Of a stretch of DNA of 64,000 bases, positions 2,527-52,601 are shown in pieces (position 1 is the first letter of the stretch; the number at the start of each line of letters is the position of its first letter). The DNA comes from an uncultured bacterium (GTDB lineage Bacteria > Verrucomicrobiota > Kiritimatiellia > CAIVKH01). The stretch spans positions 35,981-99,980 of the forward strand of contig CAIVKH010000124.1 in the NCBI GenBank assembly GCA_903906425.1. The letters run 5' to 3'. The notes under the pieces were generated by a model. It was not told the DNA's origin. It ran no database searches and saw nothing but the letters and a program-made list of their open reading frames with translations. Both the position numbers and the translations under genes were made by a program.

Positions 2527-3339
2527 TCACGCGAGCGCCTCCTGGCCGGCGAGCACGCGGGCGATGAAATTTGCGACGGTGTCGCGCGTGCGCGGGACGG
2601 CGATCAACGCTTTGAGTTTTTCGATGTTCGCCTCGTAGCGTTCGGGTGCGCCGGCGGGCGCATCGGGCAATTTGCTCCCGGGAATCAGCGCGGCGATTTC
2701 GCGAATGGTGATCAGGCCGTCGCCGCAGCAGTTGACGATTTCGTTGCGGCAGTTTTTCGCGAGCAGTTCGAAGGCGAGCGCGGCAAGGAAGCGGCTGTCG
2801 AGATATTGATAGGCGGAGTCGGGATGAACGCGCAGCGGCGTGCCTTTGAGCAAATCATAGATCGAATTTTTCCGCAGGCCGGGGCCGACGAAGCCGCCCA
2901 TGCGCAGGACGAGCCATTGCGGTGCGAAGTGCCGGACGAGTTGCTCGGCGAGAAGTTTGTGGAAGCCGTACGGCGAAAGCTTCGCGGTTTCGATGACGCA
3001 ATCCTCGCGGTTGTTCGCGGGATTCTTCACGTCGCTGTACACGTCAATCGTGGAAAGGTGGACGTGCATGACCGCCTTGAAGTCGTGGAGCGATGCGTGG
3101 ACGGAGCGGACGGACAGGTCGAAATCGAGCGGCGGATTTTCGCGCGCGAGAAACTTTTTCGAGTTGCCGTTGGCGTTGACGAGCAGGTCGCAGGACATGC
3201 CGCGATGCTGGTCGTAATTCTGGCGCGTGATGCCCGTGGTTTCGAAGCCGCGTCGCTGCGCCTCGGCGACGACGGCCGAGCCGATGAAACCGCCCGCACC
3301 AATCACGATACAAACGGGCCGCTGCGGGTTCGCGGCCAT
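2527..3339 (-). CDS. NAD(P)-dependent epimerase/dehydratase (SDR family).
   Basis: 270-aa ORF with an N-terminal Rossmann motif, CIVIGAGGFIGSAVV. Sits in the sugar-nucleotide operon. Confidence 0.7.
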   Translation of the reverse strand: MAANPQRPVCIVIGAGGFIGSAVVAEAQRRGFETTGITRQNYDQHRGMSCDLLVNANGNSKKFLARENPPLDFDLSVRSVHASLHDFKAVMHVHLSTIDVYSDVKNPANNREDCVIETAKLSPYGFHKLLAEQLVRHFAPQWLVLRMGGFVGPGLRKNSIYDLLKGTPLRVHPDSAYQYLDSRFLAALAFELLAKNCRNEIVNCCGDGLITIREIAALIPGSKLPDAPAGAPERYEANIEKLKALIAVPRTRDTVANFIARVLAGQEALA

Positions 3340-4292
3340 CAGAGGCGCGCCTCACCGCGCGCGCGCGCTGCAACGAACCATTCGGCGGTGCGCTTGAGCC
3401 CGGCCTCGAGCGTCGTGTCGCATGAGAGGCCGAGCGAGTGAAGCCGGCGCACGTCGAAAATCTTGTCGATCTGCCCGTCGGGCTTCGTGGTGTCCCAGAC
3501 TATTTCGCCGGGGAACCCGGTGACTTTCTTCACGGTGTCCGCAAGCTCGCGGATCGAAATGCGGCGGCCGGCGGAGATGTTCACCGGATCGCTGGAATCG
3601 TAGTTGGCGAGGAACCACGGGATCGTCGCGGCGACGTCGCCTGCGTATACGAAATCGCGCGTGGGACGGCCGGTGCCGAAGGCGGTCATTTCTTTGCGAC
3701 CGGCTTCCTTCGCCTCGATATATTTGCGGATCATCGCGGGGATGACGTGCGCCTGCTCAAGATTGAAGTTGTCCCATTCGCCGTAGAGGTTGCCGGGGAT
3801 CAGCGTGACGGCGTTGAAACCGTATTGCTTGCGATACGCCCACGATTGGATGAGCAGCATCTTCTTCGCGATCGAGTAGCCGAGGCTGTCGACCTGCGGA
3901 AGTCCATTCCACATCTGGTCCTCGTCGATCGGCGAGGTGGCCGTTCCGGGGTAGGAACAGCCGCCCATCAGCGCGAGGAATTTCTTCGCGCCGCCGCGCC
4001 ACGCCTCGTGCATGACGTGGGTGCAAAAAACGATGTTGTCGTAGTAGTACTGCGCCGGCCGGTTGCGATTGTCCACGATTCCGCCGGATTTCGCCGCGAG
4101 ATGCACGACGCAGTCGGGCTGGACATCTCGGATCATCTTTTCCGGCGTGCCGGGTTTGAGCAGGTCGTAGTCCTTGCTGCTCACGCAGACGAATTCGGCT
4201 TCGAACGTTTCGCGGAGCCTCGGCAAAATGTGGTGGCCGAGGAAACCGGTTGCGCCGGTTACCAGAATCCGTTTGAACCGCTTGTCTTTCAT
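3339..4292 (-). CDS. GDP-L-fucose synthase-like extended SDR (GDP-4-keto-6-deoxy sugar epimerase/reductase).
   Basis: ILVTGATGFLGHHI Rossmann motif, YSIAKK (YxxxK) catalytic motif, and the GNLYGEWDNF...HVIPAMIRK block typical of Fcl/WcaG-type enzymes. Confidence 0.7.
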   Translation of the reverse strand: MKDKRFKRILVTGATGFLGHHILPRLRETFEAEFVCVSSKDYDLLKPGTPEKMIRDVQPDCVVHLAAKSGGIVDNRNRPAQYYYDNIVFCTHVMHEAWRGGAKKFLALMGGCSYPGTATSPIDEDQMWNGLPQVDSLGYSIAKKMLLIQSWAYRKQYGFNAVTLIPGNLYGEWDNFNLEQAHVIPAMIRKYIEAKEAGRKEMTAFGTGRPTRDFVYAGDVAATIPWFLANYDSSDPVNISAGRRISIRELADTVKKVTGFPGEIVWDTTKPDGQIDKIFDVRRLHSLGLSCDTTLEAGLKRTAEWFVAARARGEARL

Positions 4293-49341: not shown

Positions 49342-50409
49342 ATGCAATTCAGCGCCGATATTCCTCGCCGCGTGATTGACCTCGACCTGCCGCCGGAGCG
49401 GCGCTGGGGCGAGGTCATCGCCGCCGACCTGGAAGTTGCGCGGGAGCTTCTGAAGACGGGCTGGGACGATGCGCTGCGCGGGGCGCATGAGCAGACTGGA
49501 AAGCCGCTGTGGCTTTTGCGTTCGGCCGCGGCCATCGCGCGCGTGCCTTTTCACGCGGCCTACCGGGCCGCGCGCGGGCGCTGCCTGCCGGAAATTTATG
49601 CGTGGGCCGACGCGCTCGGCGCGGAGCGCGGGCTGCTGGTGATGATGCAGTGCATGTACGAGCTTTCGCATCTCGATCCGGTGAAACCGCCGCCCGCCGG
49701 CTGCAGCGCGGGCGCGCGCTGGAGCGAGGCGCTCGGCGCGATGGTTCAAGTGCGGACGCTCGACTGGAACATGCCGCAGATCGGCCCGGCCACGCGCATC
49801 TTCGAATTTCACCGCGGCGCGCGAAAACATTTCGTTGTCGGGATGCCCGGACTTGTCACCGCGCTTTCGGGCATGGTGCCGGGCGGATTTTCGGTGACGC
49901 TCAACTGGGCGCCGCCGGCCGCGCTGCCGTTCTTTCATCCCGGTCCGATGATCGAAATCCGCGACGTACTCGAAACGTGCGACACGTATTCGCAGGCGGT
50001 GGAGCGGTTCCGGACCGCGCGGCTTTCAACGAGCGCATTCTTCACGGTGGTTGGCGCGCGGCGAGGCGAGGCGTGCGTGATCGAGCACGTGAAAACACGC
50101 ATGACCCGCGGGCATCAGGTCCGCGTTCGCGAAGCCGGCGACGGCGTCATCGCGCAGTCAAATCACTACCAGCATCCCGACTTCGAGCGGTTCAACGGGA
50201 TCGTCGGCACGGACCGGAGCTTGCTGATGCGAACGTCGCGCGAGCGCGCGGAAAAATTGCGCGCGGCGCTGGAAGCCGCGGCGGATTTCTCGACGGCCGA
50301 TGAATTCGCGAACTGCTTGAGTTGCCCACCGGTGGAAAACATCGAGACCCGGCAAAAGATGGTTTTCTGTCCGGCGCGCGGCGGGTTTCGCGTCTGGCGC
50401 GAAGTCTAG
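49342..50409 (+). CDS. Ntn-hydrolase, acid-ceramidase / choloylglycine-hydrolase-like (tentative).
   Basis: 355 aa. PAGCSAGARW...VRTLDWNMP...GLVTALSGMVPGGFSVTLNW resembles the Cys-nucleophile Ntn family. Start ATG 49342 lies downstream of the REP pair. Confidence 0.45.
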   Translation: MQFSADIPRRVIDLDLPPERRWGEVIAADLEVARELLKTGWDDALRGAHEQTGKPLWLLRSAAAIARVPFHAAYRAARGRCLPEIYAWADALGAERGLLVMMQCMYELSHLDPVKPPPAGCSAGARWSEALGAMVQVRTLDWNMPQIGPATRIFEFHRGARKHFVVGMPGLVTALSGMVPGGFSVTLNWAPPAALPFFHPGPMIEIRDVLETCDTYSQAVERFRTARLSTSAFFTVVGARRGEACVIEHVKTRMTRGHQVRVREAGDGVIAQSNHYQHPDFERFNGIVGTDRSLLMRTSRERAEKLRAALEAAADFSTADEFANCLSCPPVENIETRQKMVFCPARGGFRVWREV

Positions 50410-50627
50410 CGCGCGCGTTTGTAGCGGTGCTTGCGGCTGGGATCGCGGCGGGGAACGGTCTTGTCGCGCGATTCGACGTGGTAGATATCGTGGTTGACGT
50501 CCGGCGGCGGCATTTCGTGGGGCTTCTTCACATCAATGTCCCAAAGCTCTTTCAGCACCTCGACCATCGTCGTGTGCTGCTCAGGCTTCGGTTCTTCTTT
50601 CAGAAGTTTCTTGGTCCAGTTCCACAT
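50406..50627 (-). CDS. Small hypothetical protein (73 aa).
   Basis: Ordinary Lys/Glu/Pro-rich composition. Lies in a gap between two confident genes. No motif recognised. Confidence 0.35.
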   Translation of the reverse strand: MWNWTKKLLKEEPKPEQHTTMVEVLKELWDIDVKKPHEMPPPDVNHDIYHVESRDKTVPRRDPSRKHRYKRAR

Positions 50628-50707: not shown

Positions 50708-51610
50708 CTATCGCGGCCGGATTTCGATGGTGATGGTCCGGTTGCGAATCTGGCTGAGCACATCGTCGCCGCGGTACGGCGGATATTTGTCACCGTTGGA
50801 ACGCGCAGAGACGCCGGTCACTGGCCACTTGACGATGCGAACCATCGCATCCACGACGGCCTGCGCGCGGCGCATGCCGAGGTCGTAGTTGTCCTTGTAC
50901 GGCGAGCCGGGCGGCAGCGGTCGGGTCGCGGTGTGGCCGACAATCGTGAGATAACATTCGCCCGCGTGCGGGGCGATCTGCACGAGCAGGTCGCGAAGAA
51001 GCTGGTCCGCCGCCGGCGTCCAGCGGATATCGCTGGCGAAAAACGGTCCGTCAAAAACGACCTTCGCATTCTTGTCCATCCTCTCGACGTGAACGCCGTT
51101 GCGCGCAAGCCCGGCGGTCCAGGCCAGCGGGTCGGCGTTGAGCGCATCGTGCGCGAGCCGCAGCTCCACGGTCGTGTTCTTGAGGTCCGTCTGCGCCTTC
51201 TTCAACTCATCGCGCGTCATCACAAATACGACGACGAGCCCCGCGACAATCAGCGCGAGCAGCCCGACGGCGGCCTTGGCCCACATGGGCAGAAACGGTT
51301 CTTTCACAGTCATGGTGTTCATAGTTTTCTCCTCAATTTGTACGGGCTGGTTGCTGTTCAATTCTTCATCCGACATACGTTCCTCGAAAATCACCGGCTC
51401 GGTGACCGCCGTCGGCGTCTCGTCGCGCGATGCATCGAGCGGGGATTGTGCCGCCTCGATCTTCACCGTCGGGTCCAGCATTTCCGCCGCAGGCTCAGGA
51501 TCTGTCGCCGGCCCGGCATCCGCCGCGGGCTGCGCCGGTACGGCGCGGACATCGGCCACTTCTTGCATCAGGTCGCCGAGGCCGCGGCCCAGGTTTCGTT
51601 TTTCAGGCAT
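50708..51610 (-). CDS. OmpA/MotB-like peptidoglycan-binding membrane protein with a ParB-like N-terminal peptide.
   Basis: N-terminus MPEKRNLGRGLGDLM, one TM helix (AAVGLLALIVAGLVVVFV), and a C-terminal OmpA-like block GHTATRPL...NYDLGMRRAQAVVDAM...RNRTITIEI. RBS GGAG lies upstream. Confidence 0.7.
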   Translation of the reverse strand: MPEKRNLGRGLGDLMQEVADVRAVPAQPAADAGPATDPEPAAEMLDPTVKIEAAQSPLDASRDETPTAVTEPVIFEERMSDEELNSNQPVQIEEKTMNTMTVKEPFLPMWAKAAVGLLALIVAGLVVVFVMTRDELKKAQTDLKNTTVELRLAHDALNADPLAWTAGLARNGVHVERMDKNAKVVFDGPFFASDIRWTPAADQLLRDLLVQIAPHAGECYLTIVGHTATRPLPPGSPYKDNYDLGMRRAQAVVDAMVRIVKWPVTGVSARSNGDKYPPYRGDDVLSQIRNRTITIEIRPR

Positions 51611-51656
51611 GGTGACAAGCTCCGTTCAAATTTCCGCAGCGGTGCGTGATCATAAT

Positions 51657-51703
51657 TTCCAATGATTGGAAGTTCCGGTTCCGGATTTTTCCAATCATTG
51701 GAA
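51657..51703. repeat. REP cluster 15: two copies.
   Basis: 51657-51671 (G centre) and 51689-51703 (C centre), between the parA stop and the OmpA-like start. Confidence 0.95.
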
Positions 51704-51740
51704 ATTTTCTTGAGCTGCTGCGGAAAGTTTTTTTCATGGT

Positions 51741-52601
51741 TCAAATTTTCGACAGAAATCCGATCGCCGGCTGTTCGTGGCGGAAGTTTGTGCCGAGTCC
51801 GCCGACGGCGGATTCCTCGGCTTCGTCGCCGCCACGGCGACGGAGAAATTCGCGGGCGAGCTGGCGGTAGGCGGCGGCACCGGTGGAATACGAGGCGTAG
51901 TGGATGATCGGCAGGCCGTGGCTGGGCGCCTCGCTGAGGCGGATGTTGCGCGGGATCAGCGTTTCGAAAACTTTGTCGGGATAGTGCGCGATGACTTCGG
52001 CAACGACCTGCTGCGAAAGGTTCGTGCGCGAGTCATACATCGTCATGAGAATGCCGTCGATTTCGAGGACGGGATTCGTGCCGCTGGTGCGGAGCTGATC
52101 GATGATGCGCTTCATGACGCTGAGGCCTTCGAGCGCATAATATTCGCACTGGATCGGCATGATGACGCTGTGCGCGGCGGTCAGCACGTTCATCGTGAGG
52201 ATGCCGAGCGACGGCGAGCAGTCGAGGATGATGAAGTCGTAGCGGTCGGAGGCGACGAGGCCGGCGATGGCCTGGCGGAGGCGGTGCAGATAATTTTCCA
52301 TGCGCGCGATTTCGATTTCGCAGCCTGCCAGATCAATTTCGGACGGGATCAAATCGAGGTGCTTGATCGTCGTCGTCTTCACGTGTGACTCCGCCTCGGT
52401 CTGGCCGATGAGCGCGCGATACAGGCTTGCGCCGGCTTCTTTGCGGAAGCCGAGGCCGCTGGTTGCGTTGGCCTGCGGGTCCAGGTCAATCAGAAGCACG
52501 CGCCGGCCGTGCTCGGCCAGGCACGCGGCGAGATTGACGGCCGTGGTCGTTTTGCCCACGCCGCCCTTCTGGTTCGCAATCGCTATGACATCCGTTGCCA
52601 T
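51741..52601 (-). CDS. parA: Chromosome-partitioning ATPase ParA/Soj.
   Basis: IAIANQKGGVGKTTTAVNLAACLA deviant Walker A and LLIDLDPQANAT, 286 aa. Confidence 0.9.
   Translation of the reverse strand: MATDVIAIANQKGGVGKTTTAVNLAACLAEHGRRVLLIDLDPQANATSGLGFRKEAGASLYRALIGQTEAESHVKTTTIKHLDLIPSEIDLAGCEIEIARMENYLHRLRQAIAGLVASDRYDFIILDCSPSLGILTMNVLTAAHSVIMPIQCEYYALEGLSVMKRIIDQLRTSGTNPVLEIDGILMTMYDSRTNLSQQVVAEVIAHYPDKVFETLIPRNIRLSEAPSHGLPIIHYASYSTGAAAYRQLAREFLRRRGGDEAEESAVGGLGTNFRHEQPAIGFLSKI

Follow-up and report, generated by a model that had tools for sequence, protein, structure and literature searches.

A ParA paralogue encoded together with an OmpA-like protein that carries a ParB-type N-terminal peptide in Kiritimatiellia

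A 64,000-nucleotide (nt) stretch of contig CAIVKH010000124.1 from an uncultured Kiritimatiellia bacterium (assembly GCA_903906425.1), called the window below, carries a gene for a Soj-like ParA ATPase that is followed on the same strand by a gene for a 300-amino-acid (aa) protein with an OmpA/MotB-like C-terminal domain and a ParB-type N-terminal peptide. The initial annotation of this DNA had listed parA, a repetitive extragenic palindromic (REP) doublet and the OmpA/MotB-like gene in this order and had placed the true parB 3 kb away on the opposite strand; every element was found where it had been put, and the ParB gene is complete (Table 1). The adjacent ParA had also been taken for the Soj that lacks its parB, and here our analysis arrived at a different result. 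It is a lineage-specific paralogue, which we call ParA-II, and the housekeeping copy, ParA-I, is encoded on another contig (C164) of the assembly. The OmpA-like protein, referred to as the partner, is a derivative of ParB, and we consider it likely that the two genes form a dedicated module in which a nucleoid-bound ATPase is coupled to a fixed envelope anchor.

Architecture of the partner protein

The partner protein starts with MPEKRNLGRGLGDLM, in which NLGRGLGDL corresponds to residues 6-14. An LG-R/K-GL peptide with a critical basic residue is the ParA-activating element of ParB, and in Thermus Spo0J this residue is reportedly Arg10 (Leonard et al. 2005). Among eight partner homologues that were 33-61% identical overall, N6-L7-G8-R9-G10-L11-G12-D13, E17, V18, V21, A23, P25 and P28 were invariant, and L7-L11 were at least 90% conserved across 42 family members. 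The peptide, which aligned column for column with the canonical ParB N-terminus, was the most conserved segment of the partner, while the adjoining linker varied freely in length and sequence. This pattern indicates that the peptide motif is under selection. Because the peptide columns are invariant across homologues, the start codon was placed upstream of the motif, so the conservation of the peptide and the start codon on which the initial annotation depended both held. A downstream start, as in P0011 of another assembly (a 157-aa product from Met97), was rejected, since it would leave out the first 28 residues, which are better conserved than the rest of the protein.

In six-frame open stretches, the complete 6.66-Mb assembly has 6.3 million residues, and LG[RK]GLG occurred four times among them; two of these occurrences were the N-termini of ParB and of the partner protein. 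A chance look-alike motif was ruled out by this genome-wide rarity. One further occurrence was N-terminal: a CtpA/Prc-like S41 peptidase (C192:19262) starts with MSIKMLGRGLGWMIVAMLL... and has LGRGLG inside its signal-anchor, which is probably a chance match. The window ParB, the sole ParB with a helix-turn-helix (HTH) domain in the assembly, starts with MAAKPTGLGRGLGALI. The consensus around the motif was [N/S/T]LGRGLG[D/E]L in the partners and GLGRGLGALI in ParB, and the D/E as opposed to A after LGRGLG points to separate specificities.

In the AlphaFold2 model of the partner (mean predicted local distance difference test score, pLDDT, 81.5), the N-terminal 105 residues were poorly ordered, and the peptide region had a low pLDDT with a short helix at 12-18. 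The linker that follows, rich in Pro, Ala and Glu and variable in length, is predicted to be unstructured; it contains a short conserved patch, EERPxDAE, and occupies the position at which longer relatives have a ParB_N domain. One long helix (109-158), formed by the transmembrane (TM) segment and a stalk, and the OmpA-like domain (163-299) were both modelled with a pLDDT above 90. The TM helix, at approximately residues 108-132 (FLPMWAKAAVGLLALIVAGLVVVFVMT), contains no Asp. Pfam OmpA (PF00691) matched the C-terminal domain with 27.2 bits, exactly at the cut-off, and Pfam and NCBIfam gave weak similarities to TssL and MotB. Foldseek matched the fold to the periplasmic domains of PomB, MotB, TssL and YfiB with TM-scores up to 0.78; the best match was the PomB periplasmic domain PomBc (3wpw, TM-score 0.77, E 1.5e-10), and the family profile matched PomB at 8e-18.

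OmpA-like domains contact peptidoglycan through the Asp of GHTD and the Arg of L-x-x-RA. The Arg is invariant across the partner homologues (R248 in the window protein) and most family members have GHTD, but the window partner has GHTA in its place and its nearest relatives GHTA or GHTG. The earlier description of an envelope-anchored protein was confirmed as to the OmpA/MotB-like fold, but GHTA makes wall binding less certain for this copy than for most family members. An N-in/C-out topology was predicted because the protein has no signal peptide, OmpA-like domains are periplasmic and the ParB_N domain of the longer relatives is cytoplasmic; the peptide would accordingly face the cytoplasm.

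A stator or Zorya-like unit was considered and rejected, given the absence of a TM Asp and of a MotA/ZorA gene and a PADLOC score of only 22.5 bits to ZorB. No MotA-like neighbour gene was found in the window or in related loci. The MotB-like domain is also widely joined to a conserved TPR-like N-terminus (...LARAGRYxEAE...LDLLARIRAQQGRLxEAE...) followed by a TM helix, as in P0017, P0020, P0021 and dozens more. Other recurrent N-termini on the same domain start with MSKIYDDLKR... or are GYF-like, and none of these families is annotated.

Descent from ParB and association with a second ParA

A one-genome-per-species scan gave three loci (L009, L010 and L011) in which parA overlaps a 433-aa gene that starts MxKPGNLGRGLGDL... 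and encodes, in this order, the peptide, ParB_N (PF02195, 62-65 bits), a linker, a TM helix and OmpA (44-52 bits). The same order of peptide, ParB_N, TM helix and OmpA was found after parA in many further loci, and a profile search of 1.84 billion representative proteins gave, among the best 150 matches, at least 38 clusters (50% identity) with the N-terminal motif. When 42 family members were scanned, OmpA scored in all of them and ParB_N, at the position of the linker of the window protein, in 15. We distinguish a long form of 350-475 aa from a short form of 240-310 aa; the window protein, in which Pfam gave no ParB_N match, is a short form. The HTH domain (PF17762) and the C-terminal dimerisation domain of ParB were both undetected, in the window protein as in the other 41 members scanned.

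The long forms could be aligned with the window ParB over the whole stretch between the peptide and Box II, Box I included, and the identity between long form and canonical ParB reached up to 50% over residues 3-131 (E 1e-32). GERR is present in the window ParB, but the long forms never keep its Glu and have G[A/R/H/G][R/K/Q]R instead. In an AlphaFold2 model of a long form, the N-terminal half matched crystal structures of ParB-CTP and ParB-CDP as well as Noc, and the C-terminal half matched MotB/PomB. Because the gene after parA in these relatives encodes peptide, ParB_N, TM helix and OmpA, the window protein was identified as a ParB derivative that lost ParB_N and kept the peptide. The ParB-type character that had been given to the peptide is thus due to descent, since the long-form relatives carry both the peptide and ParB_N.

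At least two lineages lost ParB_N but kept the peptide: one in family f1, where the window and G008 have short forms and G001 and G003 long forms, and one a sub-clade of f25. Family f23 (L079, L080 and L082; e.g. G113:C1:3545470-3546522) has orthologous proteins of about 350-411 aa with the order ParB_N, TM helix and OmpA (33% identity over most of the length, E 1e-34). These had no LGRGLG peptide and no parA neighbour, and the f23 genomes have only ParA-I. Since f23 is without both peptide and ParA-II and the losses of ParB_N left the peptide in place, the peptide tracks ParA-II and not ParB_N. This tracking is the strongest available evidence for a functional coupling of peptide and ParA-II. 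The natural deletion series (peptide only, peptide with ParB_N, and ParB_N only) suggests that the peptide of about 28 residues may by itself be enough to connect the partner with ParA-II and that the function of the CTPase-fold domain may be a separate one. In a genome of the same family as the window (G003:C16, locus L053), a further small protein with a ParB/Srx-like N-terminal domain (MIATKRFDYVPIDAIHEHPN...GGFHRLNAIRS) is encoded at ~3100-4000, just 5' of the parA-II/partner pair.

ParA-II has the motifs KGGVGKTT, DLDPQ and ILDCSPS, corresponding to a deviant Walker A with the signature Lys, Walker A' and Walker B. The second Soj-like ParA of the assembly, ParA-I (C164:5660-6451, 263 aa), is 66% identical to it; its gene is preceded by an rmuC-like gene and followed by a gene for a secreted 210-aa protein and not by parB. 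In a maximum-likelihood tree, all partner-linked ParAs formed one clade (support 86/84), and single-copy ParAs together with second copies, including that on C164, formed the other (93/91). By this placement, ParA-II is not orthologous to the housekeeping chromosomal ParA, and within ParA-II the tree largely groups by host family. Two positions just after Walker B, S129 (codon 52215-52217) and V139 (52185-52187), are fixed in ParA-II and are P and A in ParA-I, giving DC-S-PSLG and TMN-V-L in ParA-II versus DC-P-PSLG and TMN-A-L in all 18 ParA-I sequences; these substitutions are candidate determinants of partner specificity. The partner-linked ParAs also have longer C-terminal tails with short lineage-conserved motifs, while the tails of ParA-I are plain and Pro/Ala-rich. 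The ParA-II tail of the window (51741-51870) ends with ...GLGTNFRHEQPAIGFLSKI and has the motif ...PAIGFLSKI, and among L012-L036 the motifs were GFKLKSPFEK...APAFV in f25 and RPALGAALRRVF in f31 and f58. Such motifs might be a membrane- or partner-contact element.

The class-wide profile search covered 401 genomes, and synteny was inspected in the 29 best related loci. The pairing of parA with an ompA-like gene, described at first for the window, was conserved: in 24 of the 29 loci, parA lay directly upstream on the same strand and encoded a ParA 58-72% identical to that of the window. These 24 loci, all with an LGRGLG-type peptide, span families f1, f25, f27, f31, f48, f58 and f62, so that the pair is conserved across at least seven families of the class, and it was also found in close relatives on metagenome contigs (L086-L091). 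Matches in f29, f36 and other families were rejected: they share the OmpA-like domain, but their N-termini are unrelated and no parA accompanies the gene. In a phylum-level sample of 301 genomes, strong matches occurred only in the class to which the window belongs.

The number of ParAs followed the partner. Two ParAs were present in each of the 20 genomes with a peptide-bearing partner, and the 14 genomes that lack such a partner each had a single ParA. Among 326 near-complete genomes across the class, 25 carry two Soj-like ParAs, and 22 of the 25 belong to pair-carrying families. Three two-ParA genomes lie outside the partner-bearing families (G030, G603 and G651), one of them, G030, with both ParAs on C65 (87507-88280 and 143299-144075), 56 kb apart; their second ParA could be an independent duplication or contamination. 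Each of the 34 genomes checked had exactly one canonical ParB, which, in those where both genes could be placed, was mostly not beside either parA. In G008, G003, G307, G048 and L089, ParB was on another contig or at least 10 kb away from ParA-II. The statement that parB is unlinked from parA is true at this locus but marks nothing special about it, as ParB is usually apart from either parA in the genomes where both could be placed.

The parA-II and partner genes of the window are separated by a spacer with two copies of the palindrome TTCCAATSATTGGAA, of which there are 39 in the window versus 0.02 expected by chance (Table 1). A GGAG ribosome-binding site lies 9 nt 5' of the partner ATG at 51610, and a search of the minus strand of the spacer for a terminator-like site found none. 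Since the parA and partner genes overlap by 4 bp in distant relatives, the REP pair was interpreted as a local insertion. The 73-aa open reading frame (ORF) directly 3' of the partner gene (MWNWTKKLL...LWDIDVKKPHEMPPPDVNHDIYHV...) showed 53-58% identity and 26 invariant columns when compared with ORFs after the partner gene in L086 and L089. It was absent from the more distant loci examined, and by its conservation it may be a third operon gene in a genus-level sub-lineage only. The neighbourhood is chromosomal and syntenic in relatives, with an Rsm22-like methyltransferase and a lipoprotein. Beyond the pair, the conserved neighbours were just the genus-level 73-aa ORF and the lipoprotein, and no envelope machine was linked to it.

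Table 1. Features of the parA-II locus and the canonical parB gene, in window coordinates.
Feature	Position	Strand	Basis
ParA-II, Soj-like deviant Walker A ATPase, 286 aa	51741..52601	-	Pfam AAA_31 8e-60; KGGVGKTT Walker A
Spacer between parA-II and partner gene, 130 bp	51611..51740	-	REP doublet 51657-51671 and 51689-51703; GGAG ribosome-binding site
Partner gene, 300 aa	50708..51610	-	Pfam OmpA; AlphaFold2 model; family profile
ParB-type ParA-interaction peptide MPEKRNLGRGLGDLMQEVADVRAVPAQP (putative), partner residues 1-28	51527..51610	-	Invariant alignment columns
Linker, partner residues 29-107	51290..51526	-	pLDDT 49-58; length variation among homologues
TM helix and periplasmic stalk helix, partner residues 108-158	51137..51289	-	AlphaFold2 helix 109-158
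MotB/PomB/TssL-like OmpA_C peptidoglycan-binding domain (predicted), partner residues 163-299	50714..51124	-	Pfam; Foldseek; family profile
ORF of 73 aa 3' of the partner gene	50406..50627	-	Conserved in L086 and L089; no family match
Canonical chromosomal ParB, 303 aa	55538..56449	+	ParB_N, HTH_ParB and ParB_C (Pfam/NCBIfam)

A proposed envelope-anchored ParA module and its alternatives

The module most likely arose by duplication of a parAB pair. The duplicated ParB copy would have lost the HTH DNA-binding and C-terminal dimerisation domains and gained a TM helix and a periplasmic MotB-like domain, resulting in the long form, and the lineage of the window would then have lost ParB_N. What would remain is the short form, with a peptide of ~28 residues, a cytoplasmic linker of ~80 residues, the TM helix and the OmpA-like domain. 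ATP-bound ParA-II would dimerise and bind the nucleoid like Soj; its MYDSRTNL segment keeps an Arg, which we take to be the one that Soj uses for DNA binding. The partner would reside in the inner membrane, the N-terminus facing the cytoplasm and the C-terminus the periplasm, probably as a dimer held to the wall, and the LGRGLG peptide on its flexible linker could then reach ParA-II dimers at the nucleoid surface. There the peptide would bind ParA-II and stimulate its ATPase, with the conserved Arg9 as the predicted activating residue. Partners of ParA/MinD ATPases use an N-terminus that is charged and disordered to bind and activate the ATPase (PMC10241942). Contacts of this kind would form transient bridges from DNA through ParA-II and the partner to the envelope and cause a local turnover of ParA-II at fixed envelope sites. 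As an output, the nucleoid may be held or positioned relative to the envelope, or an envelope protein may be distributed over the nucleoid.

Several points weigh against such a module. The binding of the partner to ParA-II and the stimulation of the ATPase are predicted from co-occurrence, and a wall-fixed cargo does not sit well with the usual ParA model, in which the cargo is mobile. Wall anchoring of the window copy is uncertain, as judged from GHTA or GHTG in this copy and its nearest relatives and from a Pfam OmpA score only at the threshold. The positive-inside rule was indecisive for the topology, as the TM helix has three flanking basic residues on one side and four on the other. The ParA-II clade was moderately supported (86/84). 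All genomes are metagenome-assembled, that of the window being 93% complete with 5.4% contamination, and the copy numbers carry a corresponding error. Finally, cross-talk of ParA-II and the partner with canonical ParB or with ParA-I is possible, given that the two ParAs are about 60-66% identical.

This identity is also consistent with a different reading, in which chromosome partition is the task of the adjacent ParA and the OmpA-like protein serves as an extra envelope-anchored partner, a landmark in the manner of HubP, TipN or PopZ that competes or cooperates with ParB and tethers or regulates the segregation ParA. LGRGLG is identical in the peptides of the partner and of ParB, the ParB gene is only 3 kb from ParA-II in the window, and in the long forms there is a ParB_N domain that might in principle interact with the N-domain of canonical ParB. 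However, the genome of the window and all genomes of the class that were checked encode a separate and universal ParA-I, ParA-II occurred only together with the partner, and the 3-kb proximity to ParB was not conserved in the five relatives named above. The consistent D/E versus A after LGRGLG argues for separate specificities as well. We therefore regard an additional partner of the segregation ParA as unlikely. The second ParA partner proposed in the initial annotation was right in tying the peptide to the adjacent parA, but it fits the data better to regard the protein as cognate to a second ParA.

That the peptide is a functionless relic of ParB, in a wall-associated inner-membrane structural protein that came to lie after parA by happenstance, appears very improbable. 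A leftover is conceivable in view of the clear descent from ParB, and elsewhere in the class the same OmpA-like domain carries quite different N-termini. Yet no other part of the protein is as conserved as the peptide, the linker next to it is free to vary, the peptide outlived at least two independent deletions of ParB_N, and it is absent exactly where ParA-II is absent.

An immune function was recently proposed for ParA-like NTPases whose ParB-like partners differ in their C-terminal domains (bioRxiv 10.64898/2026.10.19.760177). That proposal and the weak match to ZorB, a MotB-like protein, lend little credit to the pair being a plasmid-type partition cassette of a mobile element or a ParA-based immune module, a reading we dismiss almost entirely as the neighbourhood is chromosomal and syntenic in relatives, the partner has no effector domain, ZorA/MotA partner or DNA-binding domain, ParA-II is a close Soj paralogue with a tree largely by host family, and PADLOC gave nothing specific.

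Relation to known ParA partners

A dedicated ParA-II with a ParB-derived partner resembles several described systems in part. By descent, ParB itself is the nearest. The similarity to ParB (Spo0J) and ParA (Soj) lies in the basic LG-R/K-GL peptide at the N-terminus of a protein encoded directly after a Soj-like parA, and, for the long-form relatives, in the N-terminal CTPase-fold domain. In contrast to ParB, the partner is without the HTH, the C-terminal dimerisation domain and the capacity to bind parS and has a TM helix and a MotB-like domain instead; the window protein is also without ParB_N, and the ParA involved is a paralogue and not the housekeeping copy. The closest system in principle is PadC of Myxococcus xanthus, a ParB-like adaptor that recruits ParA to a bactofilin scaffold (PMC5703909). 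Like the partner, PadC is derived from ParB, has no role at the centromere and links ParA to a fixed subcellular structure. PadC engages ParA via its ParB/Srx domain. It anchors to cytoplasmic bactofilin polymers and uses the single housekeeping ParA, whereas the anchor here would be the membrane and cell wall, the contact the N-terminal peptide and the ATPase a dedicated ParA paralogue.

HubP of Vibrio and FimV-type polar landmarks are envelope proteins that span the membrane once; they bind peptidoglycan through a domain in the periplasm and touch ATPases of the ParA family through a part in the cytoplasm. With its single TM helix and predicted peptidoglycan-binding domain in the periplasm, the partner comes closest to HubP in its envelope logic. 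HubP, however, has an N-terminal LysM, a large acidic C-terminal cytoplasmic region and hence the opposite topology, carries no ParB-type peptide, is not derived from ParB and has no dedicated ParA encoded alongside it. In sequence and fold, the best matches were to MotB, PomB and TssL, which share the cytoplasmic N-terminal tail, single TM helix, stalk and OmpA_C-like domain; the partner differs from them by its ParB-type tail, its GHTA, and the lack of a conserved TM Asp and of a MotA/PomA/TssM gene. McdB, ParP/CheW, PomXY and MinE (PMC10241942) are, like the partner, encoded beside their ATPase as cargo-bound proteins with a short charged N-terminal peptide. Those proteins are unrelated to ParB in sequence and their cargos are cytoplasmic or mobile, whereas the peptide described here is homologous to ParB and the "cargo" would be an envelope anchor.

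Noc is another ParB-derived link between nucleoid and envelope, and the partner keeps the reverse set of ParB parts: according to a 2025 survey of ParB-CTPase-fold fusions, Noc keeps the DNA-binding and CTPase domains, is without the ParA-binding motif and binds the membrane by an N-terminal amphipathic helix (PMC12704722). The same survey names the DUF3850 fusion as the only one that is regularly encoded together with parA, and its accessible text makes no mention of OmpA or TM fusions (PMC12704722). The partner family would be a second type of ParB-fold fusion co-encoded with parA besides DUF3850. In the literature on ParB-OmpA, membrane-anchored ParB and Verrucomicrobia ParAB, we found no description of this architecture, in agreement with the earlier remark that an OmpA-family ParA partner of this kind was not known to have been described.

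ParA/MinD ATPases are general positioning machines of bacteria, and what is at stake is how one fold is given different cargos via short peptides. The partner family would be a natural case in which ParB was rebuilt as a membrane and wall anchor with its ParA "luggage tag" kept. Lineages differ in the subset of ParB parts that they keep, and the subset goes along with whether they have a dedicated ParA paralogue. The sufficiency of the peptide, the specificity of the paralogues and a separate role of a non-hydrolysing ParB CTPase fold become directly testable in such a series. As a more tentative proposal, to which we give somewhat less than even weight, a class of PVC (Planctomycetes-Verrucomicrobia-Chlamydiae) group bacteria may run a second, non-segregation ParA system with a wall-fixed, ParB-derived activator that couples the nucleoid to the sacculus. 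If so, immobile anchors would read a gradient of DNA-bound ParA-II and thereby hold or position the nucleoid, or place sites of the envelope along it. With the module, the few structures that are known to engage ParA would be joined by one anchored to peptidoglycan, and a role as segregation ATPase should not be assumed for chromosome-type ParA genes in PVC bacteria.

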